This document shows, one piece after another, positions 17,620 through 38,387 of a stretch of 57,747 bases of DNA. A program made the translations under genes and the position numbers. Numbering within the stretch: position 1 is the stretch's first letter; every line of letters starts with the position of its first letter. The notes under the pieces were generated by a model. It had not been told where the DNA came from. It worked only from the letters and a program-made list of their open reading frames with translations, and did not search any database. The DNA comes from a virus (Duplodnaviria; Caudoviricetes): positions 1 through 57,747 of IMG/VR virus record IMGVR_UViG_3300044646_000955; one strand, 5' to 3'.

Positions 17620-18516
17620 TCATTCCGCCAGTTTGAGAAACTCATTGCGAGCTTCCAGGTTGGTCCTTAGAACGCCAGTCATGCGGGAGGTAACCATCTC
17701 TGCCGCTTTGCCGATTCCCCGCAAAGACATGCACGTATGATTAGCCTTGATTACAACGCCCACGCCAATAACGTCCAGATGGTCCTCTATCGCCTTAGCG
17801 ATCTGATCGGTTAGGCGCTCCTGCACTTGAAGGCGTCGGGCGTAGGCCTCCACGAGACGAGCGAGCTTCGAGAGTCCGACTACCTTGCCGTCGGGGGCTG
17901 GGACGTACCCCACGGTAGCGGTGCCGATGAACGGCAGCATATGATGCTCGCACAGGCTCGCGAACGGGACGCTACGCAGCACGATCATCTGATCGTGCCC
18001 AACCTCGAACGTCGTGCCGAGGATGCTTGCCGGGTCACGTTCGTAGCCAGACGTAAGCTCCCTTAGAGCCTTGATCACGCGCTTGGGCGTGTCGCGCAAT
18101 CCATCACGAGTTGGGTCCTCCCCGATGTGCTGGATGAGCCGCAGAACTGCGTCCGTGGGGTCACCGTCGTTCTTCTCCCACGGAAACGTCAGCCACCCAT
18201 CGACAAGGGTGGCGTTAGGGGCGAAACCGGCAGGAGCGATCGGCTTCCGGTACAGGGCGTCACAGTGGAAGCCTCGCATCACGTAACGGTTCATGGTGGT
18301 GCCGGTGTCTACGAGATCGTCAACGACGAGCGTCCTGCCCGGCTCTGGCGTGTCGGCAAGGGGAAGGCCAAGGCGTTCAGCGACCAGCACAGCAACGGGA
18401 GCGCCCCCCGTTGGGATCCCGTAGACGCTAGACAGAGCGCTACCGGCGTTGCGTTCCGCCACTCGGTGCGCCTCGTGCTGGATGTCTGCCCAGGAGAGCC
18501 TAATAACGGTGGTCAC
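17620..18516 (-). CDS. folE: Phosphoribosyltransferase-GTP cyclohydrolase I fusion
   Basis: N-terminal [15 protein letters not shown]-binding motif and FPWE; C-terminal [38 protein letters not shown]. Confidence 0.9.
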
Positions 18517-19271
18517 TAGATTCCTCGTTGATCGTTGAAAGTAAGGGCGTGTAGGCGCACGCAGAGATTCCACCCACGACGGGCGCAGAGCATGAACAGG
18601 TCCGGGAGTGCGGCAAGGATTGAGGAGCGCGTTGTGCCTTGCGGCATCAACCAAACGCGTTCGGGTGGGCAAGCGGCAAGGTCAACAACCTTGTGAACCT
18701 CATCGAGATCGTGTTCCGACTCCACCACGAACTTCAATGATGCCCCGTACTCGACCAACCGACGGAGCACGTCGGGGCGGATGCGACGATCGTAAGGGAT
18801 CCCGGAGTTGGCAAGCTTCGGGGAGCAGTTGATCTGCGGTGGATCATCCCGGAGCGCCTCGGGAAGATCCAGGGTGCCGTTAGTCTCAACCTCAACGTGC
18901 CAGCCCGAGCTTCGCAAGGCGCCCACAAGGGAGGCAAAGGCGTTGGCCTGGACCATCGGCTCGCCTCCGGTAACGATGACCCTACGAACCTCTTGTGGGG
19001 CGTCTCGGTGTAGGCGGTTGAGGATCTCGTCAACTGCGACTCTTGACAGTTCCTTGGTGCGGTCATAAGCGACGCCGTTCTTACCACTCCAGTCCCACGT
19101 ATAAGGAGTGTCGCACCACGAGCAGTCAAGGTTGCAAAGACCGAGGCGCACAAACATCGCCGGGCGACCCGCCGACGGGCCTTCGCCTTGAATCGTTGGT
19201 CCGAACACTTCACTGACAGAAAGCCAGGTCGAGGTCGGCGCAGGGGTTAGCGGTAGACGGTCGCCGTGCAT
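18516..19271 (-). CDS. queE: 7-carboxy-7-deazaguanine synthase (radical SAM); start uncertain
   Basis: [30 protein letters not shown]. Confidence 0.92.
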
Positions 19272-19663
19272 GAGGCGGTCTCCTCCACGTCAACCCGTAT
19301 GACCGCGAGTGGCGCAAGCAGGATCGCTAGGCGCTCAGCAGCCAGGGCGGCAAGATTCTCGGCGGTCGGCTGAACAGGAAGTACGACGACTCCGGGCAAG
19401 CCGATCATCTGTTCAATGAGTGGATCGTCTTCTCCCAGGAGCAGTCGGTGGTCCCACTCGTCGTGGACCTCGGCGAGCGCGGCCTTGACTCGGGCGAAGT
19501 CGATGACCATGCCGTGCTCTGGGCCGTCGTCGGCGATGATGGGGCCTTCCACTTCAACGGTGACTCGGTAGCGATGACCGTGCAGGTGGCGACACTTCGA
19601 CTCGTGTCGGGCTACTCGATGCCCGGCGTCGATGTCTACGTGCCTACGAACGGTCGCTCTCAT
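19247..19663 (-). CDS. queD: 6-carboxytetrahydropterin synthase
   Basis: AGHR, CRHLHGHRY, GMVIDF, PTAENLA. Confidence 0.92.
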   Translation of the reverse strand: MRATVRRHVDIDAGHRVARHESKCRHLHGHRYRVTVEVEGPIIADDGPEHGMVIDFARVKAALAEVHDEWDHRLLLGEDDPLIEQMIGLPGVVVLPVQPTAENLAALAAERLAILLAPLAVIRVDVEETASCTATVYR

Positions 19664-20355
19664 GCCCCGACCTTCGTTCGCCAGAACTCGGCGTCCACGT
19701 AGTCGGTCGGATCAACAACACCGGCAAGGTGGAACGCTTCTGCTCGCTCTACACACGTCCCGCACCTACCGCAGTGGCGGTCGCCTCCCTTGTAGCAACT
19801 CCACGTCTCAGTCCAGGGGACTCTAAGTCGGTCCCCCTCGCCTGCGATCCACGCCTTATCCCGATGGACGAACGGAGCGATCACGCCTCTGAAGTCCTTG
19901 CCGAACGTCACGTTGCCGATGAGGCAGGCGGCGTTGACGGACGCTACGAACTCCGGTCGGCAGTCGGGGTAGATGAAGTGATCCCCGCCGTGGACTCCAG
20001 TTGCGACGTACTGCGCTCCTTCGGACACGGCGACCGAGCAGGCGATCGACAGCATCATCATGTTCCGGTTCGGGACCACGGTCGCTCGCATCGTCTGCTC
20101 CGCATAGTGGCCGTCCGGCACGTCGAGATCCGAGGTGAGCGAGGACGAGGCGATAAGTTTCGTGATGCTCGATAGGTCGGCGACCGAGTGTCTCGCTCCG
20201 AGGCGCTTCGCGCAGCGAGCCGCGTAGTCAAGTTCCTTGCGGTGCCGTTGCCCGTAGTCGACGGAAAGGAGATGAAGGCCGAAGTCCTGCTCTGCTAGGT
20301 GGTGGGCCAGCGTAACGCTGTCCATACCGCCCGACACGATCGCAACTACTCGCAC
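19660..20355 (-). CDS. queC: 7-cyano-7-deazaguanine synthase
   Basis: SGGMDS, YGQRH, VPNRN, YPDCR, TWSCY, CGRCGTC. Confidence 0.95.
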   Translation of the reverse strand: MRVVAIVSGGMDSVTLAHHLAEQDFGLHLLSVDYGQRHRKELDYAARCAKRLGARHSVADLSSITKLIASSSLTSDLDVPDGHYAEQTMRATVVPNRNMMMLSIACSVAVSEGAQYVATGVHGGDHFIYPDCRPEFVASVNAACLIGNVTFGKDFRGVIAPFVHRDKAWIAGEGDRLRVPWTETWSCYKGGDRHCGRCGTCVERAEAFHLAGVVDPTDYVDAEFWRTKVGA

Positions 20356-20356
20356 G

Positions 20357-21265
20357 TTATGTTTCCTGTCTCTTCGCAACGACATCTACGAGGTTGTCAA
20401 TACTTCCTTCAGCTAGGAAGATATGCGGAACGGAAGCAGCATCGATTCCCTCTTTCGCCGATCCGAGGGCCAGGTAAAGATGAGTGCCATGCGAGCTATC
20501 GGCGCTGCTCGATCGGAGGGTTATCTGCCCGTGGAGATGCCGCAGAAAGCCTTCGTAGTTGATCCACGCCTTTGCCGACATCTTTACCGCAATACGCCTG
20601 TTATAGAGAGAGCGATCGAGAAGCTGTTCCGGCTGCGCGCCATGCTCGCGAATAAGTTGAGCGTGTTGGTAGACGCTAGTGCGATCCCATAGCGTCACGC
20701 CGACGAACTTCTTTGATGCTGCATCCCATAACGCTATATGCCCATAACGAAAGGCTGCCCCCCAGGAGGATGAATCCACTGAGTACCAGGGAAAGTTTCG
20801 GAGGTATTCGTGTCTAGTCTGTCCGAAACCGTGAAACTTCGCATCGTAACGATCCGCGATTCTGAAACAACGCACTAACCACGGCCCGAGGTTTGCCGTT
20901 CGGTATGGGACCATCCCGCCTAGGGCAATATAAGGATATTCCTCGCACAATGCCTCAAGAGTCTTCCATGAGGACCCGACATGAAACACGGGCAAGGGGT
21001 TGAGCCCAAGTCGTTCAAGGCTACGCTGATTACGAGACGTTGCGGCTTCGTCACCGATAACGTCGAGGTTGGAATAAGGTGCCAGCACTCCCCGCCACTT
21101 GCGAATCCACTCTGCGTATTCTTCTAGAATAATTGTTGATCCCTGCGATGCTGCGCTAAAGGCCCCTGAATCACCAAAGACTTTTACGCCGAGAGATGCT
21201 GCCGTAGTGATCTTAGATAGATCGCCCTTACGAAAGTAATGATACGAGGTAAGGAACTTATACAT
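20357..21265 (-). CDS. dpdA: TGT-fold DNA guanine transglycosylase (DpdA-like)
   Basis: DSGAFS, NLDVIG, PVFH, IALGG, HGFG, SVDSSSW; adjacent to que genes. Confidence 0.75.
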   Translation of the reverse strand: MYKFLTSYHYFRKGDLSKITTAASLGVKVFGDSGAFSAASQGSTIILEEYAEWIRKWRGVLAPYSNLDVIGDEAATSRNQRSLERLGLNPLPVFHVGSSWKTLEALCEEYPYIALGGMVPYRTANLGPWLVRCFRIADRYDAKFHGFGQTRHEYLRNFPWYSVDSSSWGAAFRYGHIALWDAASKKFVGVTLWDRTSVYQHAQLIREHGAQPEQLLDRSLYNRRIAVKMSAKAWINYEGFLRHLHGQITLRSSSADSSHGTHLYLALGSAKEGIDAASVPHIFLAEGSIDNLVDVVAKRQET

Positions 21266-21884
21266 CCATGAGACGATCTAGGATGTGGTTTACGAACGCC
21301 TCGTCGTTATCCCCACTCGCATCTCCATCGATGCTCTTTCGATAGTTTGACCAGCGTTGTTCCACTTCGCGACGTACTAGCAACTTGATCACTGCTAGTT
21401 TCTCGCTGGGCATATCTTCATCTGATTCCCCGTAAACGCCAGCAAGAGCATCGAGTGAAGGAACTTCATATCGTTTGATGAGATCCGCTATGAAGCTCTC
21501 TTCGTAACCCGTTGTGTTCAATAGATCCGGGTCCACGGCGACGGTCTGTAGCAACTCGATTAGTTCGATATCGTCGTATCCACCCAGATCGCCCGTGCGG
21601 TTATCAGCCAGCGCGAACGCCTTAGCGGTCAGTTCGTCGTCGTCGGTCCACACTACGGCGATGTGGGACCAGCCGAGCCGCTGCGCCGCCTTGAGCTGAT
21701 GGTTGCCCGCGATGACGGTGCCGTCGCGCTGGGCCACGATGGGCTTCCGCTGCCCGAACCGCTCGTAGCTGCGCTTCACCGCCTCAACGTCACCCCGCCT
21801 CGGATTCCCGGGGAAGGGGCTGAGCAGGTCGAGCGGTGTCGCTAGGGGGCGAAGATCCTCGGCGATGTAACTAAGGTCGCTCAT
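21258..21884 (-). CDS. ParB/Srx-like protein
   Basis: NPRRGD...FGQRKPIV...IAGNHQLKAA...ALADNR. Confidence 0.85.
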   Translation of the reverse strand: MSDLSYIAEDLRPLATPLDLLSPFPGNPRRGDVEAVKRSYERFGQRKPIVAQRDGTVIAGNHQLKAAQRLGWSHIAVVWTDDDELTAKAFALADNRTGDLGGYDDIELIELLQTVAVDPDLLNTTGYEESFIADLIKRYEVPSLDALAGVYGESDEDMPSEKLAVIKLLVRREVEQRWSNYRKSIDGDASGDNDEAFVNHILDRLMDV

Positions 21885-21898
21885 CGTTCGCCAGCTTA

Positions 21899-22084
21899 CT
21901 ACTCGGGTCGCATTGCACAGGCGCAGAACGCGCACCGGCCGTTCGACTGGAGGCTATGTGAGCAGTTCCGATCGGCCGTGCCGGGGGCATGGGTGGGGCA
22001 GTACCAGCGGCCGTCTACGAAGAGCCGCACTGATCGCTCGGACTTGGCTCGGCATCCGCCCTTGACGGCGCATCCGTGGTTCAT
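21899..22084 (-). CDS. Small Cys/His-rich protein
   Basis: ATGA-coupled ORF. Confidence 0.5.
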   Translation of the reverse strand: MNHGCAVKGGCRAKSERSVRLFVDGRWYCPTHAPGTADRNCSHSLQSNGRCAFCACAMRPE

Positions 22085-22704
22085 CGCACGAACCGCTTCG
22101 GGTAGGCGACGAGGGTAAGCCGGTAGCCGTCGAGCCCGAGCGACACCGGGGAGACCCCGTGCCACGTTGTGAGCCCCGGAAAGAAGGCTACGTCTCCGTC
22201 GTCCATCGGGAGCCAGGCGTCAAGCTCGGGGAGGTGGAGGTGCCCGCCGATGGCGTCTCGGCGCATGGCGAGGACTGCCGTCCAGCCCGGGGCGTTGGAG
22301 GTGTCCCGGTGGTAGTTGAGCGTCACGTCCCGATTCGCCACGAAGCCCGTCCAGCCCGTGCCCGGCATGAGCTTGGGGCGGGTAGCGGGGTGTGTCGTCT
22401 CGATCGTTGCGCGAGCCTCGTCCGGCAGCATGCGCGAGAACCGGGCCCATGCCTCGGCTACGTAGGCGCGTAGGGCCTCCCCCCTTGCGCCTCCGGCGTC
22501 GATGATCTCCCGACCGTGCTCCCATCTCTCCCGGCCGTTGCGCCCGCCTTGGGCGATCAAGGGGGCTAGAGCGGCGGCATGCCGTGCGAACCCCCCGAGA
22601 TAGGCGGCGCAGGGCCTGCCGCCCGCATCCCGTAGAATGTCGTCAGGGATCACGAACTGGTCGGCAGCGACCGGCGGGAGGACTCTTGTCCTGCCCTGGA
22701 TCAC
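22081..22704 (-). CDS. TET/JBP-like 2OG-Fe(II) dioxygenase
   Basis: YHRD (HxD), GGHLHLPE, DGDVAFF, WHGVSP, R.TLVAY. Confidence 0.8.
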   Translation of the reverse strand: MIQGRTRVLPPVAADQFVIPDDILRDAGGRPCAAYLGGFARHAAALAPLIAQGGRNGRERWEHGREIIDAGGARGEALRAYVAEAWARFSRMLPDEARATIETTHPATRPKLMPGTGWTGFVANRDVTLNYHRDTSNAPGWTAVLAMRRDAIGGHLHLPELDAWLPMDDGDVAFFPGLTTWHGVSPVSLGLDGYRLTLVAYPKRFVR

Positions 22705-23240
22705 GAGTCCCCCTCGAGCGTGAAGACCGCCCAGCCGAGGGCGTCGGATACGTCGATGAGACTCAAGTCGTCGCGCTCGGCCTTGGTCGCTTGCACGAGG
22801 AGTTTCTTGGGCCCGGCGAAGAGCTTCGCGTCCACGCCTATCTGCCGCCATCGCTGCGTCCCGTCGTCGTCAAGGAAGGGCTCAACGAGGAGGGACGCTA
22901 GAACCATGCGCTTGCAGTCCAAGGCTACGGCCTGGATGCCCGTGCGGATTCGCGGGTCCTCCTCGGCTAGCGCTTCGAGCGCTTGAGTCCGATCTAGATG
23001 CGCCGCGCTGAACCACACCTCGTCACACCTTCCGATGAAGGCAGGCGCTGCGGAGTGGACCATCGCCGAGAGGATCCTCTGCTTCGCCGGTTCACTCGCC
23101 TCGCTCTTGGCGGTCAGCGGCTCGGCGACCAGGCTCGCTCCGCTAGGGGCGACTGCCCACAGCTTCGGCTTGAGGGTGCCAAAGATCTCGTAGCAGTCCA
23201 TCGCCGCTTGAGCGTGGCTGATGAGAACGTCGGTGATCAC
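22701..23240 (-). CDS. Hypothetical protein
   Basis: GTGA-coupled at both ends. Confidence 0.6.
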   Translation of the reverse strand: MITDVLISHAQAAMDCYEIFGTLKPKLWAVAPSGASLVAEPLTAKSEASEPAKQRILSAMVHSAAPAFIGRCDEVWFSAAHLDRTQALEALAEEDPRIRTGIQAVALDCKRMVLASLLVEPFLDDDGTQRWRQIGVDAKLFAGPKKLLVQATKAERDDLSLIDVSDALGWAVFTLEGDS

Positions 23241-23431
23241 TCTGGCACCGGGTACACGTCGCGCACGTCCACTGACAGATAGCGCCCGTTCGCAAGGAGA
23301 ACGCGGGCCTTGCCGTTGCGCTTCCTCATCCCGGCGCCCGGCCATGAGACCAGGGTAGCGAACCGACCGTCATAGAGTTGCACTCGGCCCCTACTGGCTG
23401 CGTGCTGAATCATCGCTGTGGTGGTGTTCAT
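23237..23431 (-). CDS. Leaderless small protein
   Basis: Variant promoter TTGACA-TCCCGTTCCGAGATGGTG-TACCAT at 23432-23468. Confidence 0.65.
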   Translation of the reverse strand: MNTTTAMIQHAASRGRVQLYDGRFATLVSWPGAGMRKRNGKARVLLANGRYLSVDVRDVYPVPE

Positions 23432-23753
23432 CGTCGCTATGGTACACCATCTCGGAACGGGATGTCAACAACTGCGCTACCGCTTCGGGGGCGTCGCGCC
23501 GGGCCCGGTCCCGCCGGATGATTACATCTACGGCTGAGCGCGTAAGCGGTTCGGCGCCGAGCACGGACCGGACGTAGTTGAGCCGATGGAAGGCTGCCGC
23601 CTTGGTTAGAACCCCTTCGGCGTGAAGGTCAACGATGAGGGCGTTGCGGCGCTCTAGCGCTCGCTGCCCCTCGATGACTGCCCGCTCAAGCAGTTCTAGC
23701 TGCACCTCGTGAGGCTTGACGGCGGCGCTGGTGATGATCTTGGGGCGAGCCAT
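23391..23753 (-). CDS. Hypothetical protein, possibly DNA-binding
   Basis: ORF in operon order. Confidence 0.5.
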   Translation of the reverse strand: MARPKIITSAAVKPHEVQLELLERAVIEGQRALERRNALIVDLHAEGVLTKAAAFHRLNYVRSVLGAEPLTRSAVDVIIRRDRARRDAPEAVAQLLTSRSEMVYHSDDEHHHSDDSARSQ

Positions 23754-23754
23754 C

Positions 23755-24135
23755 TCAGAAGGATCCCACTTGGTAACGGACGTTGGCGGCAAGGGAGCGC
23801 AGGGCGTCGAGCCTTGCGCGAAGGGAGAGCAGGAGTTCCTTAGTGGCGTTGCGGCGCGCCTCGGCGAGCTTCCACGCGCGGAAGTCATCGGTGGCGATGA
23901 CCTCCGCTCGAGCTTGCTTCTCGGCCGAGGTGAGCTTCATGGATTGATTCGCCGACATGCCCACGACGGCCCGGGCGAAGGTCGCCTTGAAGTCCGCCTC
24001 AGCGGTGGCGGCTGCCGAGGCGAGATCGGCGTAGAAGTGCGTCTGGATCTCTAGCTCCTTCGACACTGCTGCTAGGTCGGCCTCGATCTCCGCCTGCGAC
24101 AGGACGCGGATGGGGCCGTTTCGGTTGCTGCTCAT
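23755..24135 (-). CDS. Coiled-coil hypothetical protein
   Basis: GAAAG RBS, ATGA coupling. Confidence 0.6.
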   Translation of the reverse strand: MSSNRNGPIRVLSQAEIEADLAAVSKELEIQTHFYADLASAAATAEADFKATFARAVVGMSANQSMKLTSAEKQARAEVIATDDFRAWKLAEARRNATKELLLSLRARLDALRSLAANVRYQVGSF

Positions 24136-24461
24136 GGGTGGCGTTCTTTCGGTCGGGCGGATCGGAGCAAGCCGAGAAGTGTCGCCTGCTGCGGGTGGTC
24201 GTGGACCCATCGGTGATGGGCCCGGCAAAGGGACGCGAGGTTGTCGGCCGTGTCCGCCCCTCCCCTGCCTCGTGGCTGGAGATGGTGCGGGTCGATCCGG
24301 CCAAAGCAGGCGACCTCCGGTACCGTCGAGCGCGCTAGGCAACCTCCGTCTCGGGCCAGGACGGCTTCATACAGGCTCGACGCGACGGGGCGGGGTTGGG
24401 GCGCCTTCATGGGGGCCTTGGCCTTGAGCGGTGTTCGCCGGGCCAGCGGGGTTCGCCTCAC
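24132..24461 (-). CDS. HNH endonuclease
   Basis: RDGGC...DPHH..PR..GG....NLASLCRAHH. Confidence 0.85.
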   Translation of the reverse strand: MRRTPLARRTPLKAKAPMKAPQPRPVASSLYEAVLARDGGCLARSTVPEVACFGRIDPHHLQPRGRGGADTADNLASLCRAHHRWVHDHPQQATLLGLLRSARPKERHP

Positions 24462-24835
24462 GCCTTGCCCACCCATCGCTCGAACGCTTCGTAGTCCGGG
24501 CGGCGCCCTCGGCGGATGCGCTCGTCAGCGTACGCCTGGCGCGCTATGGCGATGCCGTCGTCGTAGGGGACCTTCGCGGGGGCCGGGCCGATGCCTGCCC
24601 GCTCAAGGTTGCGGCGCTCTACCTCTCGGCGGTACTCGGCGACGATGACTCCGATGGGCGGGCGTGCCGTCTTGGTCCACTCCCGGACGATCCTCCGAAC
24701 GGCTACCTCGGCGGCGGCGGCGTCGTCCATCTCTCGCGCCATCTCGTGCGCGTAGGTCTCAACGTGGACGTCGGTCCATCCATGGCCCGTTGCGGCAAGG
24801 ATGGTGACGAGGCGGGCGGCGTCAGAAAGCTTCAT
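24458..24835 (-). CDS. Possible helicase loader/inhibitor (G39P-like)
   Basis: Follows initiator; weak pattern similarity only. Confidence 0.45.
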   Translation of the reverse strand: MKLSDAARLVTILAATGHGWTDVHVETYAHEMAREMDDAAAAEVAVRRIVREWTKTARPPIGVIVAEYRREVERRNLERAGIGPAPAKVPYDDGIAIARQAYADERIRRGRRPDYEAFERWVGKA

Positions 24836-27186: not shown

Positions 27187-27187
27187 C

Positions 27188-30281: not shown

Positions 30282-30724
30282 CGCCGGGCCCGCTTCGCGC
30301 GATACATGGCAGCATCTGCCTGGCGCACGGCGTCGTCAGCCTCGCCGATCCCGAGTCCGACCGATGCCCGCACGCCCCACCGGCCGTCGAGCGCTGCGGC
30401 GAGGCGGTGCGCGGCGTCGGTGGCGTCGGCCGTGTCGGCGAGGAGGACAAGGATCTCGTCGCCGCCCCATCGGCTCACGAGGTCATCGGCGCGCACGGTC
30501 GCCCGGATCACTTCGGCGGCGAGCAGGAGCACGGCGTCACCGGCGGCGTGCCCTAGCGTGTCGTTGATCGCCTTGAGCCCGTCAAGGTCGGCGAGGATGA
30601 CGGCGCACGTTCCGGCGGAGCGGCGCCGCTCGAGCAGGATCTCGCCGACCGGCCGGACGTGCAGCCGGGTCGTCGGACAGGTCGTGAGCCGATGCAGGTC
30701 GGCAGGTGACAGGTCGAGGGTCAT
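30278..30724 (-). CDS. Stand-alone GGDEF (diguanylate cyclase-like) protein
   Basis: DLDGLKAINDTLGHAAGD, RWGGDEI, ASVG, ADAAMYRAK. Confidence 0.9.
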   Translation of the reverse strand: MTLDLSPADLHRLTTCPTTRLHVRPVGEILLERRRSAGTCAVILADLDGLKAINDTLGHAAGDAVLLLAAEVIRATVRADDLVSRWGGDEILVLLADTADATDAAHRLAAALDGRWGVRASVGLGIGEADDAVRQADAAMYRAKRARR

Positions 30725-31284
30725 CGGATCACCTCGGTCATGTCGGCCCCGGTGAGGTTGGCCCCGATGAGGTTGGCCCCGGTGAGGTTGGCCTCGATCA
30801 GGTCGGCGCCGGTGAGGTTGGCGCCGGTGAGGTTGGCGCCGGTGAGGTCGGCGCCGGTGAGGTTGGCCTTGGTGAGGTCGGCGCCGGTGAGGTCGGCGCC
30901 GGTGAGGTTGGCCCCGGTGAGGTTTGCCTCGGTGAGGTTTGCCCCGGTGAGGTCGGCCTCGATCAGGTTGGCCCTGGTGAGGTCGGCCTCGGCGAGCTTG
31001 GCCCCGGTGAGGTCGGCCCAGTTCATGTCGGCCCCGGTGAGGTCGGCGCCGGTGAGGCGGACGTCACGAAGGTCGGCGTCACAAAGGTCGGCGTCGAAGA
31101 GATTGGCCCTGGTGAGGTTGGCACCGATCAGCTTGGCCCCGGTGAGGTTGGCGCCGACGAGGTCGGCGTGCGTCAGGTCGGCGCCGCGCAGGTCGGCGCC
31201 TCGCAGGTCAGCGCGCTTGCCCGTCCCCGGGACGGCGAGCCAGCGAGCGTGCTCGGCGAGGATATTCGGCAGGTCGAGGGTCAT
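30721..31284 (-). CDS. Pentapeptide repeat protein
   Basis: A(D/N)LxG repeats. Confidence 0.9.
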
Positions 31285-31754
31285 CGGATCACCTCGTTCA
31301 TGTCGGGCCCGGTGAGGTTGGCCCCGGTCATGTCGGCCCCGGTGAGCTTGGCGCCACGAAGGTCGGCGTCGAAGAGATCGGCCCCGGTCAGGTCGGCGCC
31401 GATCAGGTTGGCCTCGGTCAGATCGGCCCCGGTGAGGTCGGCCCCGATCAGCTTGGCCCCGGTCAGGTCGGCCCCGGTCAGGTCGGCGCCGGTGAGGTAG
31501 GCCCCGGTGAGATCGGCGCCGATCAGATTGGCCCTGCTGAGGTTGGCCCCGATCAGGTTGGCGCCGATCAGGTTGGCGCCGATCAGGTTGGCCTCGGTCA
31601 GATCGGCCTCGGTCAGATCGGCCCTGGTGAGCTTGGCTGCGACGAGGTCGGCGTGCGTCAGGTCGGCGCCGCGCAGGTCGGCTCGCTTGCCCGTCCCCGG
31701 ATCGGTGAGCCACTGAGCGTGCTCGGCCAGGATGGTCGGCAGGTTGATAGTCAT
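31281..31754 (-). CDS. Pentapeptide repeat protein
   Basis: A(D/N)LxG repeats. Confidence 0.9.
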
Positions 31755-32239
31755 CGGATCACCTCGGTCATGTCGGCCCCGGCGAGCTTGGCCCCGATCA
31801 GGTTGGCCCTGGTGAGCTTCGCGCCGGTGAGGTCGGCCCCGATCAGGTTGGCACCGCTCAAGTTGGCCTCGGTGAGGTTGGCCCCGATCAGGTTGGCCCC
31901 GATCAGGTTGGCCCAATTCAGGCGGGCGCCACGAAGGTCGGCCCTGGTGAGCTTGGCGCCGGTGAGGTTGGCGCCGATCAAGTTGGCCCCGATCAGGTTG
32001 GCCCCGATCAGGTTGGCCCCGATCAGGTTGGCCCCGCTGAGGTTGACCCAATTCAGGCGGGCGCCACGAAGGTCGGCCCTGGTGAGGTCGGCGCCGGTGA
32101 GGTTGGCGTCACGAAGGTCGGCGTCGGTGAGGTTGGCCCCGATCAGGTTGGCGCCGCGCAGGTCGGCGCGCCGGCCGGTCGCCGTATCGGCGAGCCACTG
32201 AGCGTGCTCGGCCAGGATGGTCGGCAGGTCGATGGTCAT
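31751..32239 (-). CDS. Pentapeptide repeat protein
   Basis: A(D/N)LxG repeats; GAAAGG RBS. Confidence 0.9.
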
Positions 32240-32291
32240 GTGTGTGCCTTTCGTGGTGTTGTGGCATCTTATCGGCCGCATGAACAGGAAG

Positions 32292-32546
32292 TCAAGCCGG
32301 GCGAGCGGCGTCGATGACCGGAGCCATCGAGAACTTCCCGAGCGGGAAGGCGATCTCGCGAGGACCGTTGAAGTCGCTGACAGTGATGCCCACGAGCCGC
32401 GATTCGCCGGTAAGGACGTCCCGGATCAACATCCTCTTAGCCGTACGAGCGACGACCACGAAGCTCCACCGGTAATCACCCCGGCCGGTGTCGTAGGTGG
32501 TTCCGACCTTGAAGGTGGCGGTGATGGCGGCGGTGTTCGTGCTCAT
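32292..32546 (-). CDS. Leaderless cassette protein, 84 aa
   Basis: Class-1 promoter at 32547-32580. Confidence 0.75.
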   Translation of the reverse strand: MSTNTAAITATFKVGTTYDTGRGDYRWSFVVVARTAKRMLIRDVLTGESRLVGITVSDFNGPREIAFPLGKFSMAPVIDAARPA

Positions 32547-32613
32547 GTCCTTAGTATACATGATCCCGGAACAGTGTCAAGCGAGAGCAGAACTTTTCTC
32601 GGAAGGTCGAAGA

Positions 32614-32973
32614 TCAGATCGCACCCGTTACCCCGGTTACGGTAGCCATGTTGACGTTGGCTCCCCTTGAGTCGATGCCGGTTAGATCTGCGTCCCGCAG
32701 GTCGGCCCATCCGAGGTTGGCCCACCGCAGATTCGCCCCCGTTAGGTCCGCCCCGTTGAGATAAGCGCCCCGCAGGTCTGCATCGGCGAGGTTCGCCCCG
32801 GCCAGGTTGGCCCCGATGAGCTTGGCACTGATCAGATTGGCCAGCTTGAGGTTGGCCCCTCGGAGATCGGCCCCGCTCAAGTCGGCATTGCTCAAGTCGG
32901 CCCGCTTGCCCGTTGCCGGATTGGCGAGCCAGCGAGCGTGCTCCGCAAGGATGGTCGGCAGGTCGATCGTCAT
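32614..32973 (-). CDS. Pentapeptide repeat protein
   Basis: A(D/N)LxG repeats. Confidence 0.9.
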   Translation of the reverse strand: MTIDLPTILAEHARWLANPATGKRADLSNADLSGADLRGANLKLANLISAKLIGANLAGANLADADLRGAYLNGADLTGANLRWANLGWADLRDADLTGIDSRGANVNMATVTGVTGAI

Positions 32974-33254
32974 CGGATCACCCCGGTCATGTCGGCCCCG
33001 GCAAGGTCGGCGCCGGTGAGGCGGGCGCCGCATAGCTGGGCGCGCCGGAGGTCGGCGCCACGAAGGTCGGCGTCACGGAGGTCGGCGTCGAAGAGGATAG
33101 CGTCACGAAGGCGAGCGCCACGAAGATCGGCGCCTCGCAGGTCGGCGCCTCGCAGGTCGGCGCGCTTGCCGGTCGTGGGATCGGCGAGCCAGCGAGCGTG
33201 CCCGGCGAGAATGATTGAGAGGTCGTTGGCGGCGGTGTTGATCGTCGTGCTCAT
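32970..33254 (-). CDS. Pentapeptide repeat protein (leaderless)
   Basis: Class-1 promoter at 33255-33290; ADLRG repeats. Confidence 0.85.
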   Translation of the reverse strand: MSTTINTAANDLSIILAGHARWLADPTTGKRADLRGADLRGADLRGARLRDAILFDADLRDADLRGADLRRAQLCGARLTGADLAGADMTGVIR

Positions 33255-33293
33255 GTCGTCATTATATACACGATCCCGGAACGGGGTCAAGCC

Positions 33294-33503
33294 TTAGGGG
33301 GAACTTTTCTTAGCGGGCCCGGGAATCTCCCGCTGACTGACGAGCACGGCGACCGGGGGCGACTCTTCCCGCAGGAGATCCTGAATGATCTCGACTGCTT
33401 CGGAGGGTTCTAGGTCCTCCCAGACCTTGTGAGCCGACTCCCCGCCTTCGAGCAGATACTGAGCGTCAATGCACACCACGCCTAGCGTCTTACCACGCGG
33501 CAA
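33294..33503 (-). CDS. Hypothetical protein (start uncertain)
   Basis: ORF only; 5' end overlaps hairpin 33477-33517. Confidence 0.35.
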   Translation of the reverse strand: MPRGKTLGVVCIDAQYLLEGGESAHKVWEDLEPSEAVEIIQDLLREESPPVAVLVSQREIPGPAKKSSP

Positions 33504-33522
33504 GACGCTAGGCGTAGCTCGG

Positions 33523-33693
33523 TCACGCCTTGAACTGGCTCGCGTCCAGGCCGAGCTTCTCGTAGAGCGTTACCGCCGCCTTTGCCATGCGGAGCCGCGT
33601 CGCCCGCATGGCCTCGCGATCCCCTGCGTCAAGAGCGGCGACGTACGCCTCCCGGGCTGCCCGGTATTCCCTAATCATCTTGGTGGTGCTCAT
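33523..33693 (-). CDS. Leaderless cassette protein, 56 aa
   Basis: Class-1 promoter at 33694-33729. Confidence 0.7.
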   Translation of the reverse strand: MSTTKMIREYRAAREAYVAALDAGDREAMRATRLRMAKAAVTLYEKLGLDASQFKA

Positions 33694-33725
33694 GTCGTCA
33701 GTATATACATGTTCCCGGCACGACG

Positions 33726-33956
33726 TCAAGCGGGGGGCGCAGGATTAGCCGCCAGGGCTCGACGACGGTAGCCCTCGGCGACGTAGGCGGCTCGCGCCGC
33801 CTTGCACGCCGCGCACGGCGTCTCCTTGTGCGCCAGGTGTCGGGCGTAGGCGGCGTTCGTGCCGCATGGCATGACGGCCGGGCGTCCGATCCTGCCGGTT
33901 GCCGCTCCACGTCGAGCGCGAAACGCGCGACTTCTCTCTGCTCCGGACAAGGCCAT
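33726..33956 (-). CDS. Small basic Cys/His protein, paralogue of 11955..12149
   Basis: GAER.R..RARRG...PCGT.AAY.RH..HKE.PC.AC; GGAGGA RBS. Confidence 0.7.
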   Translation of the reverse strand: MALSGAERSRAFRARRGAATGRIGRPAVMPCGTNAAYARHLAHKETPCAACKAARAAYVAEGYRRRALAANPAPPA

Positions 33957-34016
33957 CAGTTCCTCCGCGTTGGTTGGATCTGCACTTATACCACGAACGC
34001 GGTACGAACGCAACTC

Positions 34017-34733
34017 CTACGCGCCGAGGTGCGCCCGCAGGATCGTCTCCCACTGCGCGTCCGACTCGACGATCCACGTCCCGGCGCCGGTCGCAGCGAG
34101 CGCCCGGTCACGCTCGCCCGGGTCGGTGAACCCGACGATGCGACCGTTGACCAGCAAGCATTCGGGTTGCGATCCGTCGGAACGCACGAGGTGCACGGCC
34201 ATGTCATCGTCCTCCTGTGGTGGTGGCGGTGGGGGAGCGGCGGAGTAGATCGGCCGACCGAAACCCATGATGCGACTGTCGTTCTTGGGGCGGATGACCG
34301 ATTGAACCATGTGGTTCAGGTTGCCCTCGACGGTGCGGTATGACGCGCCCAGGTCCTCGACGATGAGCCCGACGTGATCCGGCTGGCCGGACCGATCCCA
34401 GTCCAAGTAGATGTGATCGCCGGGCAGGCCGAGCGTGCTCCACTGGTTCAGCGATCGCCACTTGTTGCGATCCTGCGGCGTGTAGAAACTCACGATCTCC
34501 AACGACCATGCGGCAGGCCATCCGGCCGCCTCGTGATGCCAGGCGGCGATGGCCGAGGCGCACCACTCCTGTCCGTCGCGGTTGATCCACGACCCGTTGG
34601 CGAGCTGGACCGGGCCGTACCGGCGGTCCAGTTCGGCAACGAGCGTCGTGCGGTTCGAGCCGTACGGGTCCTCGACCAACCCGACGTAGCGTTGCGCTAC
34701 ATCAACAATCGCAGCGACGGTCGGCGCAGCCAT
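34017..34733 (-). CDS. Endolysin, CHAP domain
   Basis: EWCA, PGD, DHVGLIV, TVEGN. Confidence 0.85.
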   Translation of the reverse strand: MAAPTVAAIVDVAQRYVGLVEDPYGSNRTTLVAELDRRYGPVQLANGSWINRDGQEWCASAIAAWHHEAAGWPAAWSLEIVSFYTPQDRNKWRSLNQWSTLGLPGDHIYLDWDRSGQPDHVGLIVEDLGASYRTVEGNLNHMVQSVIRPKNDSRIMGFGRPIYSAAPPPPPPQEDDDMAVHLVRSDGSQPECLLVNGRIVGFTDPGERDRALAATGAGTWIVESDAQWETILRAHLGA

Positions 34734-34762
34734 GAGCGCATCCTACTCGCTAGGTTGGGAGG

Positions 34763-35047
34763 ATGGCGGCAGCTAGCGAAACCTTCACCGTCAAGGCTGA
34801 ATGGCGCTTGGTGAGTGGGGGCGCGATCACTACGGAAGCGGCGAAGCTGAACGCCATCGCTGCGGCCCACGTGCTCAATGAGCTAGTCAACTCCCCGACC
34901 CCGCCTACCTCGATTCTCGTGGCAACAGAGAGAGCAGGCGAGCCCCGGGTCTACGCCGAGGGCGAGCACGTCTTTACGATCGGGTTCGGGGCTCACCAGG
35001 ACATGGACTCCCTCGCCTACCGGAAGCGCCGTCGCTGGTTCGGCTAA
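34763..35047 (+). CDS. Hypothetical protein
   Basis: ORF divergent from endolysin. Confidence 0.5.
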   Translation: MAAASETFTVKAEWRLVSGGAITTEAAKLNAIAAAHVLNELVNSPTPPTSILVATERAGEPRVYAEGEHVFTIGFGAHQDMDSLAYRKRRRWFG

Positions 35048-35097
35048 TCATCCCCCTCCCCGCTTGACCCCGTTCCGGGATCGTGTATACTAGAGAC

Positions 35098-35271
35098 ATG
35101 AGCACGAACACCATCTCCGAAGATCCGATGCGGCGCCTCGCCGACGCCACCGTGGCGATGCTCGCCGCGATGGTTCAGTCCCGGGTTGACGCCGGGATGA
35201 CGGACAACGATGAGATCGCCGAGAGCATCCTCTCGTCGCTCCGCCGGAACTTTCTCGCCGACAATGCTTGA
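35098..35271 (+). CDS. Leaderless cassette protein, 57 aa
   Basis: Class-1 promoter at 35064-35097. Confidence 0.75.
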   Translation: MSTNTISEDPMRRLADATVAMLAAMVQSRVDAGMTDNDEIAESILSSLRRNFLADNA

Positions 35272-35301
35272 CAGTGTTTCGGGTTAGTGTATACTGAGGG
35301 C

Positions 35302-35637
35302 ATGAGCAACCACGTCGCCCCCCAGGAGGCCCCGATGTACGCCGAAGTGACCGTCGCCAACCGCATGAACGCTTGGCGGATGATCGAGCGCCTTCAGCGC
35401 TTCGCCCGGAGCAACGCCCGGCCCGTCGGGCTGAACTCGCTCTACCGGGCGCTCAAGGCGGCGCAGTACGCCGAGAGCTTCCCGGCGTCGTACGATCCGA
35501 AGGTCGTGCGGTCGGCGTGCAACCTGCTCTCGTCGTGCGATGCCGGAAGCCCGGGCGACGTGACCGACTTCCTCGCGTTCGATGATGCCGTGGAGGAGAT
35601 GCTCGCCCACATCGAGGCGGGACTCGTGGGGTTCTAG
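35302..35637 (+). CDS. Leaderless cassette protein, 111 aa
   Basis: Class-1 promoter at 35268-35301; its -35 overlaps the previous stop codon. Confidence 0.75.
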   Translation: MSNHVAPQEAPMYAEVTVANRMNAWRMIERLQRFARSNARPVGLNSLYRALKAAQYAESFPASYDPKVVRSACNLLSSCDAGSPGDVTDFLAFDDAVEEMLAHIEAGLVGF

Positions 35638-35685
35638 CCGGAGGCGAGCGGCGCCGACGTGGTGGTGGCGCCGCTCGCTCTACGG

Positions 35686-35925
35686 CTAGGGCTTGGCGGC
35701 GTCGCGAACGATGGCGGTCCGTTGCTCCGCGAGCATGGCCTTGCGGTCGGCCTCCATCGCGGCAAGCGTGCGCTCCAGATCCTTTGCGGACTGGATCTGA
35801 GAGGCGAGGGTCGCCTGCGTCTCGGCGATCTCGTCCAGCACGGCGTCGTACTCGCGACGCTTGACCTCGAGCGGCGAGAGAGGCTTGCGGCCTCGGCGGG
35901 TGGTCGTGGTCGTGTCGTTGCTCAT
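35686..35925 (-). CDS. Small coiled-coil protein with RRGRKP motif
   Basis: AGGAG RBS; ATGA coupling. Confidence 0.6.
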   Translation of the reverse strand: MSNDTTTTTRRGRKPLSPLEVKRREYDAVLDEIAETQATLASQIQSAKDLERTLAAMEADRKAMLAEQRTAIVRDAAKP

Positions 35926-37247
35926 GGTTGCTGCTCTCCTGGTTGGGTCCGGCGCCAGCCGGACGGTGTCTGGACTGCGAGCCCGTCGTCGGCCAGCGCG
36001 CGCAGCACCGGCAGGACGGTCGTGGCTCCTCGCCCGCAGGCGTCGGCAATCGCTCGCTTGCCTTGCGGGTGATCGGTGAGCGCAGCCAGGACTAGCGCCC
36101 TGGTTGCGGCTCGACGGTCGGCGTCATCGACGGCAGGGGTCGGACCGGCCGTGAGCTGGGAGGCGACCGGGTCGGCGGCCAATCGCCGACCCTCGGCACC
36201 GACCCGCGCCGGGTAGGCCGTAGCGGCGCCGTCGGGGAGGTGCCACATGCGCGCCCGGAGCCACTGACTCGACCCCATCGGCTGCAAGGCGAGCATCCCG
36301 GCATGCTCCGGGAAGTCGGCCGGCGACCACCGATGGCGGCTCGGGAGACCCGGATCGGCGGCCATGAATCCCCACTCACTCGGCGACCCGATGCGCATGC
36401 ACACGCGTTGCATTGCCTGCGATCGTGGCGCGCCCGGAACGAACTCATTCGTCCCTCGTTGCGCGCCGATCACGAGCGAAATGCCAGCCGATCGCCACAG
36501 TGAGAACGCCCGCTGCCACGTCTTGTCGGCCTCGCTGCGGCTCACGTTGCGCGCATGAGCGAGGTCGTCCCGGGCGATCGCAAACTCGTCGACGATGACG
36601 ACGATCGGTCGCCGTTGCGCGATCGGTTGCCCGGCTCGCTGGTCGGCGATCGCGCTCAAGTCGGCCATCATTGCGGCGAGGTCGTCCGGTGTCGTCACGA
36701 GTCGATCGAGCGCAAGCCCGCCGTAGTCCTCGCCGCGTTTACCGGTCTCGGCTACCCACACGTCGCCGTCACTGACGCCACCGAGCGCAGCGGCGACGTA
36801 GCGCAGAAGCGTTGACTTGCCGGAGCCGGTCGAACCCACGAGGAGCGTGTGCCCGCCGGTCCAGCGCAGCACGGCATCGCTGCCGTCCTCGCATCGGCCG
36901 ATCACGGTGCCCTGGTGGACGCTGGAACGCCGCTCGAGCGCATCGAGCCCGCCGGTGATCGGCTTGCCGAGCGGATCGACGACCCGTTGCTCGATGACGA
37001 GTACGCCCGGATGCGCGCCGTGCCGCACCCGCACGTCGTGCGCGCCCACCGAGCAACCGAGGCGCGCGCCAAGGTAGGCGGCGATGCTTGCCTCGTCGGC
37101 GTGCGCGACCTGCCCGAGCGGGGCCACCGCAACCCATCGACGCGCCTCCGGCGTGCGTCGGAACTCGGATAAGGCGAGCACGTCGAGCCCTCGGACGTGC
37201 GCCTGCATGTCGCTCCATGCGGCCCGCTGGCGCGCCGTCAAAGTCAT
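35922..37247 (-). CDS. FtsK/SpoIIIE (TraB-like) ATPase with C-terminal HTH
   Basis: HTLLVGSTGSGKST, VVIVDEF, RSAGISLVIGAQR. Confidence 0.85.
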   Translation of the reverse strand: MTLTARQRAAWSDMQAHVRGLDVLALSEFRRTPEARRWVAVAPLGQVAHADEASIAAYLGARLGCSVGAHDVRVRHGAHPGVLVIEQRVVDPLGKPITGGLDALERRSSVHQGTVIGRCEDGSDAVLRWTGGHTLLVGSTGSGKSTLLRYVAAALGGVSDGDVWVAETGKRGEDYGGLALDRLVTTPDDLAAMMADLSAIADQRAGQPIAQRRPIVVIVDEFAIARDDLAHARNVSRSEADKTWQRAFSLWRSAGISLVIGAQRGTNEFVPGAPRSQAMQRVCMRIGSPSEWGFMAADPGLPSRHRWSPADFPEHAGMLALQPMGSSQWLRARMWHLPDGAATAYPARVGAEGRRLAADPVASQLTAGPTPAVDDADRRAATRALVLAALTDHPQGKRAIADACGRGATTVLPVLRALADDGLAVQTPSGWRRTQPGEQQP

Positions 37248-37441
37248 TGCTGCGCCGCCTCCACGCCATTGAAGAACTGCGCCGCCTCCACGCCGTCGAA
37301 GAACCCCTGATGGTACGGACACCAGTTTCGGCGTTGTTGCTTGACGTGGCACCCGCATGACCACCATTCCCAGCCGTTGCCTCCCGGTTCGATCGTGAAG
37401 TGCCTGCGAACGTCTGCGATCGTCAGCTCGAACGGGCTCAC
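37244..37441 (-). CDS. Hypothetical protein
   Basis: GGAGG RBS; coupled. Confidence 0.5.
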   Translation of the reverse strand: MSPFELTIADVRRHFTIEPGGNGWEWWSCGCHVKQQRRNWCPYHQGFFDGVEAAQFFNGVEAAQQ

Positions 37442-37872
37442 GACCTCGGCCCTCCGATGTTGATCGAGGCGACGTTGATGACGACCTGGCGGCGTCGATG
37501 TGCGCCGCTGCGACCGTCGACGACGGCGACCGGCTCGTCGCACCATGCGCACAACTGCTCGCCGGTTGCGGTGCGGATCGGCGCCCGGCCGACTCCTCGG
37601 CAGGCGTCACGCTCACGTCGAGCGCGTCGGCTCACGCCGGTCGACGGCGTCCCACCGTCAACGGGTGCGGCATCGGCAATCGGCGTTGCGCTCGGCCCGC
37701 CGAGGGTCGGCGTGGCGTCGCGCCGGGCGAGCCGGTCGAGCGCAGCGCGCACGCGCCCGGTGACCGATCCGCCCGGCAGGCGAGGGGTGATCTCGGATGA
37801 CAACTCCCACGGGGCGAGGGAGAGTGGAGACGTTGCGATGAGGTCGGCCGGGTCGGGTGCAGGCCAGGTCAT
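37438..37872 (-). CDS. Hypothetical protein
   Basis: GGAGG RBS; ATGA coupling. Confidence 0.5.
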   Translation of the reverse strand: MTWPAPDPADLIATSPLSLAPWELSSEITPRLPGGSVTGRVRAALDRLARRDATPTLGGPSATPIADAAPVDGGTPSTGVSRRARRERDACRGVGRAPIRTATGEQLCAWCDEPVAVVDGRSGAHRRRQVVINVASINIGGPRS

Positions 37873-38387
37873 CGCCACGCCTCCGCGTAGCTCGGGCATC
37901 CTCGTGCAACGAGCGCCTGGTCTTTGACGCTCAACAACTCAGCCCGCCGGTCGTCGCGTCGAAGCGCGCAGACCCATCGATCTTTGGCGGCTTGCGGCTT
38001 GTCGTTGCGCCATGCGCCGTTGCCGGTTGGCGGCGTCCGAAGGCGGTGCCACGTCGGCGCCCATTGCCAGTTACACGCACGATAGAGCGCGCCGGTGTGT
38101 CCGGCGGACGGGTCGCTGTAGGACACGATCGTGGTGACGTCTAGCCGGTCTCGCAAGAGCGCCAGACGAACTCGGCGCCATTGCTGCGAGCCGCCGTTGC
38201 GTTGACCAACCAGACACCAGCGGACGAGTTCTAGCCACGTGCCGTCCTGCGGGAGCCTTCGTGAGGTCGGCTTGGCGAGGACCAGCACGCCGAATTCGTC
38301 GCTCCACGCAATGCCTCGGCCAGTCGCGCCGAGGTAGTGGTACGCATCGAGGAAGGGAGCCACGGTCCTCGGCGGCGTCCAGGTCAT
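37869..38387 (-). CDS. Mom-like DNA modification protein (GNAT fold)
   Basis: HYLG, LELVRW, IVSYSDPSAGHTGALYRACNW signature. Confidence 0.75.
   Translation of the reverse strand: MTWTPPRTVAPFLDAYHYLGATGRGIAWSDEFGVLVLAKPTSRRLPQDGTWLELVRWCLVGQRNGGSQQWRRVRLALLRDRLDVTTIVSYSDPSAGHTGALYRACNWQWAPTWHRLRTPPTGNGAWRNDKPQAAKDRWVCALRRDDRRAELLSVKDQALVARGCPSYAEAWR

Follow-up and report, generated by a model that had tools for sequence, protein, structure and literature searches.

The viral record IMGVR_UViG_3300044646_000955 from IMG/VR, analyzed here over its full length of 57,747 bp (henceforth: the window), looks complete (CheckV 100%, no terminal repeats), has a G+C content of ~66%, carries nearly all of its genes on the minus strand, and contains three sets of genes for the modification of DNA bases. 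These are a preQ0 (7-cyano-7-deazaguanine) synthesis pathway with a DpdA-like DNA transglycosylase, a TET/JBP-like dioxygenase, and a Mom-like protein. All three had been proposed in the original prediction, and profile searches, PHROG comparisons and predicted structures agree with it, also as to the positions: FolE, QueD, QueE and QueC as well as DpdA are all identified by profile matches, the dioxygenase assigned to 22081-22704 has the invariant HxD...H and R residues and a TET-like predicted fold, and the protein assigned to 37869-38387 scores above the Mom family cut-off and has Mu Mom as its best structural match. What had been overlooked is a ParB-like gene between DpdA and the dioxygenase. 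Read along the minus strand from 23345 to 15803, the order is: an open reading frame (ORF) of unknown function, the dioxygenase, a Cys-rich ORF, the ParB-like gene, DpdA, QueC, QueD, QueE, FolE, and the terminase genes. The Mom-like gene sits 15 kb from the other modification genes; on one side of it are an FtsK-like NTPase and small ORFs of unknown function, on the other a tail-fiber gene. No isolate phage is close to this virus: megablast of positions 17000-24000 against isolate phages gave no matches, and the large terminase subunit (TerL) reaches no more than 45% identity with its counterparts in phages of Brevundimonas, Actinomycetia and Arthrobacter.

The four enzymes of preQ0 synthesis are all present, with FolE, QueD and QueC exceeding their Pfam cut-offs. 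QueC (preQ0 synthase; 19660-20385, minus strand, 241 aa) matches PF06508 over residues 13-220 with an E-value of 3.6e-56, and the Pfam scan revealed no extra domain or fusion with a glutamine amidotransferase. QueD (6-carboxytetrahydropterin (CPH4) synthase of the 6-pyruvoyltetrahydropterin synthase fold; 19247-19663, minus) matches PF01242 (3.1e-31). QueE, the radical S-adenosylmethionine (SAM) 7-carboxy-7-deazaguanine synthase (18516-19271, minus), passes the cut-off of the Radical_SAM family (2.6e-12), and its top NCBIfam matches are all QueE models (TIGR03365, 1.4e-28), each of them under its own cut-off. The GTP cyclohydrolase I FolE (17620-18672, minus) is N-terminally extended; it matches PF01227 over residues 175-349 (1.5e-66) and NF006825 with 226.2 bits, over the cut-off of 174 bits. 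As listed, the ORF shares 157 nt with QueE, so that its true start probably lies near 18513. An extended FolE is also known from Vibrio phages and from Queuovirinae such as NP1, where it has 297 aa; within the extension of the window FolE (ORF residues 1-170), residues 114-168 show a weak phosphoribosyltransferase-like match (phrog_8995, 3.2e-9; PF00156 under its cut-off). A search for QueF gave 12.5 bits at best, and only inside FolE; ArcS, DpdC and DpdL/M/N were not searched for by model. Since QueF is absent and QueC is not fused to an amidotransferase, the expected product is the deoxynucleoside of preQ0 (dPreQ0), and we consider its presence in the virion DNA very likely.

The transglycosylase (20357-21265, minus) is a DpdA of the phage type, as indicated by matches to phrog_887 (2.5e-53) and phrog_7068 (6.8e-49); the Pfam scan gave none. 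It has 1445 relatives at E ≤ 1e-10, and its nearest homologs in isolates are the gp2/gp3 proteins of Rosebushvirus and Typha mycobacteriophages (34-37% identity over 94-98% of the length). D32, D68, D164, H95, H145 and H245 are invariant across 26 sequences. NF041059, the equivalog model of bacterial DpdA, matches residues 109-173, around D164, and the three Asp residues may correspond one-to-one to Asp95, Asp130 and Asp256, the Asp residues for catalysis or recognition in bacterial tRNA-guanine transglycosylase/DpdA. A scan with the single DpdA sequence recovered one locus (L054) and was superseded by a profile scan. The entry for the window DpdA in the public protein collection has just 243 aa, or 80% of the ORF; the full length of 302 aa is backed by relatives at 61-64% identity.

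The ParB-like gene (21258-21884, minus, 208 aa; phrog_723, 4.3e-40; Pfam ParB_N 16.5 bits, under its cut-off) is where the history of the locus can be read. Its N-terminal domain, a predicted nucleotide-binding domain of the ParB type (codons ~1-108, 21561-21884) that matches phrog_723, is 83% identical to the corresponding domain in a related virus contig, L003, in which TerL, the small terminase subunit (TerS) and the portal protein are 77%, 83% and 77% identical to those of the window, respectively. In L003 the gene order is dioxygenase, ParB, a 371-aa P-loop/GNAT (GCN5-related N-acetyltransferase) protein, TerS, TerL, while DpdA and the preQ0 genes are absent from its locus; this relative carries the dioxygenase gene of the window beside a ParB N-domain of the same lineage. 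Homology between the two DNAs spans 21910-21562, i.e. the N-terminal part of the ParB gene, stops at 21562, and restarts at 17600, five codons into TerS. The segment of ~3.96 kb that is specific to the window comprises the C-terminal domain of ParB (codons ~109-208, 21258-21560), DpdA, QueC, QueD, QueE and FolE. The G+C content at third codon positions (GC3) also changes within the single gene, from 0.78-0.95 in codons 1-80 to 0.42-0.55 in codons 121-208. It is 0.39-0.62 along DpdA (0.53 for the gene, against ~0.8 in native genes), 0.67-0.76 in QueC, QueD, QueE and FolE, and 0.83 in the dioxygenase and TerL.

The C-terminal domain of the window ParB aligns end to end with the C-domains of 20 viral ParBs linked to DpdA, and in a pairwise comparison it is 31% identical over 88 aa to the C-domain of gp1 of the Rosebushvirus Qyrzula (E = 2e-5; z = 10.1, with 0 of 300 shuffles reaching the score). 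The C-domain of the L003 ParB is of a different type, one that recurs beside the P-loop/GNAT gene in metagenome contigs, and the window has no homolog of that P-loop/GNAT protein. The single ParB gene thus appears to be a hybrid of a native, dioxygenase-linked N-domain and a cassette-borne C-domain of the DpdA type. As the window-specific insert begins inside the ParB gene, the C-domain, DpdA and the preQ0 genes seem to have come in together, on a single cassette of ~4 kb.

A scan of metagenome contigs with the ParB sequence yielded 10 short loci, in which the N-domains are fused to methyltransferases (MTases) or followed by the P-loop/GNAT gene; neither the dioxygenase nor DpdA was found in any of the 10. 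Two metagenome contigs (L135:312-3228 and L137:1833-4596) contain tandem genes with ParB N-domains, the second fused to a DNA MTase of the N6/N4 type, directly upstream of a TerS related to that of the window, and L136 has a similar ParB-MTase fusion. L003 itself encodes an N6/N4 DNA MTase straight after TerL (4111-5448; PF01555, 3.6e-32). We also considered, and rejected, the possibility that the ParB-like protein is the partition protein of a plasmid prophage: no ParA-like ORF was present among the ORFs scanned, the sole large NTPase being FtsK-like, and the gene occupies a modification slot found in many relatives of the lytic type.

A physical contact between DpdA and ParB is predicted by modeling of their complex, which scored 0.61 (three runs: 0.60, 0.62 and 0.61), compared to 0.00 for the best of three controls. 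Of 80 solved complexes, 58 came up to this mark, as did 2 of 110 mismatched pairs; both counts are rough, since we used our own alignments. The runs agreed in at least 72% of contacts, with a partner pLDDT of at least 72, and all confident contacts on the ParB side fall within residues 138-196 (interface 138-165 and 188-196), inside the cassette-borne domain. The predicted contacts include ParB residues 141-154 and, in DpdA, residues 127-135 and 156-159. The C-domain of ParB is therefore the predicted docking surface for DpdA, with the confidence being that of the model itself. We know of no solved DpdA-DpdB complex that the predictor could have memorized. For the bacterial proteins a crystal structure of DpdA and a small-angle X-ray scattering (SAXS) model of DpdB have been described, each protein alone (PMC10164549). 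Of 79 viral DpdA loci, 35 have a ParB-like ORF directly upstream of DpdA on the same strand; when only the 59 loci with 700 nt or more of upstream sequence are counted, 33 have it. In Queuovirinae, NP1 for example, no ParB-like gene lies beside DpdA.

The dioxygenase (22081-22704, minus, 207 aa) is predicted to have the Fe(II)/2-oxoglutarate (2OG) dioxygenase fold of the TET/JBP type (5mYOX). Its GTG start overlaps the stop codon of the upstream ORF, as in the gene model of the original prediction; we rejected the idea that the TET match is an artifact of that overlapping ORF, since the 207-aa model has 14 full-length relatives (191-225 aa, 53-71% identity), of which the nearest (P0007, 71%) is encoded on a 58.8-kb contig. 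All 15 sequences share H132, D134 and H182 as iron ligands and R195 as the residue that binds 2OG, and the precomputed table of the protein database lists PF12851 for 14 of these 15, including that of the window. In a Foldseek search with the AlphaFold model (pLDDT 83.1, pTM 0.85), CMD1, NgTET1, CcTet and TET2 were the best matches (E from 3e-7 to 3e-4), before other 2OG oxygenases. The ORF is intact, and its GC3 is that of native genes. Searches for loci of this family found one in viral contigs and none in metagenome or genome contigs. The relatives in isolate phages are partial (at most 56% coverage) and are mostly gene 2 of Cooper-like mycobacteriophages. The TET/JBP-like genes of cluster B mycobacteriophages (e.g. 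Cooper gp2, L002), as well as PHROG 6059, are publicly mislabeled "queuine tRNA-ribosyltransferase"; these cluster B genes match the dioxygenase and not DpdA.

As to the substrate, six-frame searches of the window detected no C5-MTase (PF00145; the control matched in 9 of 14 genomes), no thymidylate synthase-like enzyme (PF00303) and no N6/N4 methylase (PF01555). Because the window lacks a C5-MTase, a ThyA-like enzyme and an N6/N4 MTase, and because a ParB-like gene adjoins the dioxygenase, the substrate is most likely thymine rather than 5-methylcytosine (5mC), and we predict that the enzyme is a ParB-associated thymine dioxygenase. According to O'Toole et al. 2026 (PMC13229309), the thymine dioxygenases of phages include a subclass that depends on a cognate ParB-like activator when acting on double-stranded DNA, and no C5-MTase adjoins its members. 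The enzyme could instead oxidize 5mC laid down by the host, yielding 5-hydroxymethylcytosine in place of 5-hydroxymethyluracil (5hmU), as 5mC-oxidizing phage TET enzymes exist (PMC8256090) and the thymine dioxygenases studied so far oxidize 5mC too (PMC13229309). However, the phage encodes no C5-MTase, and clades specific for 5mC are reported to adjoin a C5-MTase gene while the ParB-linked clade does not (PMC13229309); we regard this alternative as very unlikely.

Two ORFs flank the dioxygenase. The one translationally coupled to it (22701-23345, minus; likely start 23240, giving 179 aa) has no match in Pfam, PHROG or NCBIfam, and an Atlas search brought up an Ea47-like fold and otherwise just hypothetical proteins of phages. 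In the interval that separates the dioxygenase from ParB lies a putative Cys-rich ORF of 61 aa (21899-22084, minus; seven Cys, GC3 0.79, no Pfam family), whose ATG overlaps the stop codon of the dioxygenase (ATGA). It is absent from L003, in which the gap between the dioxygenase and ParB is 12 nt, compared to 196 nt in the window. Typha likewise has a small ORF, but between ParB and DpdA. A scan of 21700-22300 found neither promoters nor terminators.

The third module is the Mom-family GNAT (37869-38393, minus; 174 aa if started at the GTG, 172 aa if at the ATG at position 38387). Its score with PF25680 is 32.7 bits, against a cut-off of 27.1 bits, and phrog_1384 is matched at 1.1e-9. The family is strongly conserved, with 65-77% identity among the matches listed of 1779 relatives, and PF25680 is present in all of the best 120 of these. 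The best solved match of the predicted structure (pLDDT 87.3) is Mu Mom (8bv8_B; E = 2.1e-6, query-normalized TM-score 0.58), ahead of generic GNATs, and the best matches to viral models include the Mom of a Salmonella phage. R58, S69, D94 and Y104 are invariant in the family; a weak profile alignment, in which 8bv8 is the sole match from the Protein Data Bank (PDB), pairs them with R111, S124, D149 and Y159 of Mu. The catalytic residues of Mu Mom are R111, S124, D149, R151 and Y159, and a helix-turn-helix (HTH)-like insertion at ~175-209 is essential (PMC13219725).

How unusual is this combination? The co-occurrence survey suggested along with the original prediction covered 79 viral loci encoding relatives of DpdA, taken from the best 80 of 162 matches. 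The dioxygenase family was found in none of the 79, and PF12851 was likewise lacking throughout the 50 longest records with DpdA, including the 12 of them that are at least 90% complete. Of the 47 viral loci that carry a Mom-like gene, none contains any further member of the modification set of the window within 6 kb, and QueC and PF12851 are each missing from the whole records of all 42 examined (0 of 14 among those at least 90% complete); the same PF12851 search did recover the gene of the window itself. The combination of modules is therefore rare: none of the 50 virus records with DpdA that we examined contains it, and none of the 42 with a Mom-like gene. In our literature searches, no paper came up in which one phage combines dPreQ0 with 5hmU or with an enzyme of the TET or Mom kind. 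Queuosine, deazaguanine, transglycosylase and Mom are not mentioned in the main text of PMC13229309, nor are ParB, dioxygenase or Mom in that of PMC10516641, or ParB or DpdB in that of PMC6884629; the contigs mined in these papers, listed in their supplements, may include this record.

The survey also bears on the manner in which the enzymes could cooperate. The original prediction had allowed that they might act in series, the dioxygenase and/or the Mom-like GNAT tailoring the 7-deazaguanine into a new derivative. In favor of such a pathway, the dioxygenase, ParB and DpdA genes are contiguous, and one of the 79 DpdA loci (L086) has a Mom-family gene right after QueC. preQ0, however, carries a nitrile and has no methyl group of the kind that the dioxygenase family hydroxylates. 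The pair of dioxygenase and ParB exists without DpdA both in L003 and in Cooper, the dioxygenase is missing from the DpdA loci and records counted above, just as QueC is from the Mom-like ones, and the adjacency of the dioxygenase and DpdA is explained by a recent insertion with a composition of its own. The characterized substrates of the dioxygenase family are 5-methylpyrimidines (PMC13229309), and while phage deazaguanine-tailoring enzymes (DpdL, DpdM and DpdN) do exist, the main text of the work describing them mentions no dioxygenase or Mom (PMC10516641). As the modules are inherited separately, we abandon the serial pathway, which appears extremely unlikely. The three modules are, judging from the sequences, independent, of known kinds and separately acquired, and two of them appear to be neighbors only through the DpdA cassette having landed in the slot. 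In L086, a 7951-bp IMG/VR contig, the cluster DpdA-QueD-QueE-FolE-QueC (725-4799) is followed just downstream on the same strand by the PF25680 gene (3.2e-25, 89 bits), and its QueC has 398 aa with an N-terminal extension of ~170 aa.

We therefore favor as probable the interpretation that three independent, separately inherited modules modify bases of the phage's own DNA after replication. What we observe is the content of genes, their folds, the conservation of catalytic residues, the synteny, the breakpoint, and how rarely the modules are combined; every chemical product is inferred. FolE, QueD, QueE and QueC would make preQ0 from GTP, and the phage-type DpdA would swap G for preQ0 in double-stranded DNA, assisted by its ParB-like partner as bacterial DpdA is by DpdB. 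The dioxygenase would hydroxylate thymine to 5hmU, and the Mom-family GNAT may acylate the N6 of adenine using aminoacyl-tRNA, like Mu Mom, which moves glycine from Gly-tRNA-Gly onto this position (PMC13219725). A tRNA scan of the window found no genes, hence there would be no phage tRNA-Gly for a reaction of the Mom type. The DpdA cassette would have entered a modification slot upstream of the terminase and replaced the C-terminal half of ParB. The suggestion that G, a pyrimidine and A are modified side by side thus stays plausible, since all the enzyme families have withstood scrutiny, and the pyrimidine can be narrowed to thymine as the most likely one.

Several observations weigh against this interpretation, and they concern all of the modules. 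DpdA scores only 23.6 bits with NF041059, under the cut-off of 200 bits, and with two Cys and no CXCXXC it lacks the structural Zn motif of bacterial DpdA, CXCX2CX22H (PMC10164549). The C-domain of ParB alone has no matches at E ≤ 0.01 in isolate phages, and in a comparison with Typha gp1 it scores no higher than shuffled sequences do (z = 0.4). PF12851 scores 27.3 bits with the dioxygenase (28.2 bits in the six-frame search), below the cut-off of 34.9, and among the window ORFs scanned, which were not all of them, there is no kinase, transferase or glutamine amidotransferase (GATase) to elaborate 5hmU, even though the ParB-dependent subclass is usually linked to such enzymes (PMC13229309). 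In the case of the Mom-like protein, tblastn against 50,697 isolate phage records found no relatives, the subfamily being metagenomic; the profile alignment to Mu Mom is weak (E = 0.22); the position of the essential R151 aligns with S96; and the essential HTH-like insertion of Mu (~35 aa) is matched only by a low-confidence loop of ~25 aa (residues 113-137, pLDDT 58-77, one 4-residue helix). Moreover, the Mom-family gene in the L086 cluster is an exception to the independence of Mom from DpdA.

A further point concerns the activator of the dioxygenase. The ParB gene is adjacent and its N-domain is present, but its C-domain is of the DpdA-linked type, and whether the hybrid still activates the dioxygenase can only be inferred; the enzyme may lack a working activator. 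It is conceivable, then, that only dPreQ0 is made, the cassette swap having orphaned the dioxygenase, with little or no activity left, and the Mom-like GNAT being inactive on DNA. This would be in keeping with the C-domain not being of the L003 type, with the requirement for both ParB domains and the modest cognate specificity of the pairing (PMC13229309), and with the yield of only 0.5-1% 5hmU when ParB-dependent enzymes are expressed by themselves (PMC13229309). The missing equivalents of R151 and of the full HTH-like insertion in the Mom-like protein, and of the P-loop/GNAT slot protein of L003, point in the same direction. On the other hand, the dioxygenase ORF is intact, with all four catalytic residues and a native GC3 of 0.83, some ParBs activate 3-9 non-cognate enzymes (PMC13229309), and the strong conservation of the Mom-like family, with its invariant R58, S69, D94 and Y104, argues for some active enzyme. 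On balance we find it rather unlikely that dPreQ0 is the sole product, and continue to prefer the reading of three independent modules. Formation of 5hmU by the dioxygenase nonetheless hangs nearly in the balance, its chances being lowered because the hybrid ParB may not serve it, modification of adenine by the Mom-like GNAT is a tentative proposal that falls somewhat short of that, and the occurrence of dPreQ0, 5hmU and a Mom-type adenine modification all together seems decidedly unlikely.

Whatever its present activity, the hybrid ParB is a natural experiment on how a ParB activates its enzyme, a question left open by the 2026 study of thymine dioxygenases. The recombination joint falls between the two domains, the C-domain appears to have traveled with DpdA, and the predicted contacts are found only there, which makes the role of the C-domain as a dock for the effector directly testable. 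If correct, the docking idea would unite the bacterial DpdA-DpdB system, the phage ParB-DpdA pairs and the ParB-5mYOX pairs. It is tempting to go further and consider phage ParB-like proteins as modular adaptors, in which a conserved nucleotide-binding N-domain would be combined with a swappable C-domain that docks, and travels with, the neighboring effector, be it DpdA, a TET/JBP dioxygenase, an MTase or a P-loop/GNAT protein, with one hybrid here serving both the dioxygenase and DpdA. We consider this scenario unlikely; if true, the hybrid would couple the modification of G and T in the same DNA, possibly at packaging, given that the terminase genes adjoin the slot. Having two or three of its bases modified would render DNA resistant to many restriction enzymes, and perhaps to CRISPR nucleases, and the hybrid helper protein hints at how modification enzymes get swapped between phages.

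The terminase genes TerS (17181-17615, minus) and TerL (15803-17203, minus), which between them match phrog_4102 (6.6e-36), phrog_979, phrog_38 and phrog_2, form the downstream border (15803-17615) of the modification-gene slot. Elsewhere in the window, the segment 30278-33033 (minus) encodes a protein with a GGDEF domain (PF00990, 3.9e-24) and, after it, three proteins of pentapeptide repeats with 330, 176 and 139 aa, which, as a guess, might serve as DNA mimics or in anti-defense; pentapeptide-repeat ORFs near a Mom-like gene also occur in 4 of the 47 other viral loci.

With respect to characterized systems, the deazaguanine module is closest to that of the Rosebush-type mycobacteriophages. 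Genes gp1-gp7 of Qyrzula follow the same order as in the window (ParB-DpdA-QueC-QueD-QueE-FolE-terminase), the order in Typha is close, the Rosebushvirus gp2 DpdA is 34-35% identical to that of the window over 98% of the length, and the Qyrzula ParB is homologous to it across both domains (34% over 185 aa). Rosebush DNA contains dPreQ0 on ~28% of G (PMC6884629). The window differs from this type in the TET/JBP dioxygenase directly upstream of ParB, the other lineage of the ParB N-domain, the long N-terminal extension of FolE that resembles Queuovirinae, and the TerS gene between FolE and TerL. ORF1 of the Rosebush-type phages was proposed as a homolog of DpdB in 2019 (PMC6392294), and bacterial DpdA needs the ParB-fold ATPase DpdB in order to put preQ0 into DNA (PMC10164549, PMC10516641). 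Thus, the window shares with the DpdA-DpdB system of Salmonella Montevideo a transglycosylase with a ParB-fold partner, their contact in the window being a predicted one. However, the ParB of the window has 208 aa and a small C-domain instead of the SspE-like helical domain of DpdB, its DpdA is without the Zn site and the bacterial insertions, and the window is without DpdC (not searched for by model) or a restriction part.

The dioxygenase can be likened, by fold and context, to 5mYOX clade C1, which includes Cooper. In both cases an enzyme of the TET/JBP fold stands beside a short ParB-like gene near the terminase (in Cooper: ParB-like gp1, TET-like gp2, TerS, TerL), no C5-MTase is present, and the ParB-like proteins have no obvious DNA-binding domain. 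On the other hand, Cooper gp2 has 322 aa compared to the 207 aa of the window dioxygenase, and the two align only over the C-terminal 90 residues. The C-domain of the window ParB is furthermore of the DpdA-linked type, and the linked kinase, transferase or GATase is missing among the ORFs scanned. The third module has its counterpart in Mu Mom (PF25680; PDB 8bv8; Silva et al. 2026, PMC13219725), with which it shares the predicted GNAT fold and, going by the weak alignment, probably the equivalents of R111, S124, D149 and Y159, while being shorter (174 aa against the 232-residue chain of 8bv8), having Ser in place of R151, and bearing a shorter insertion that is not HTH-like. Sequence searches of the PDB with the dioxygenase, the Mom-like protein, DpdA and ParB gave no significant match (best: ParB, E = 0.02). 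It is the combination of modules and the hybrid ParB that are new here; the chemistry is not categorically so, each module being of a described kind, namely the phage dPreQ0 systems, the ParB-dependent thymine dioxygenases, and Mom.

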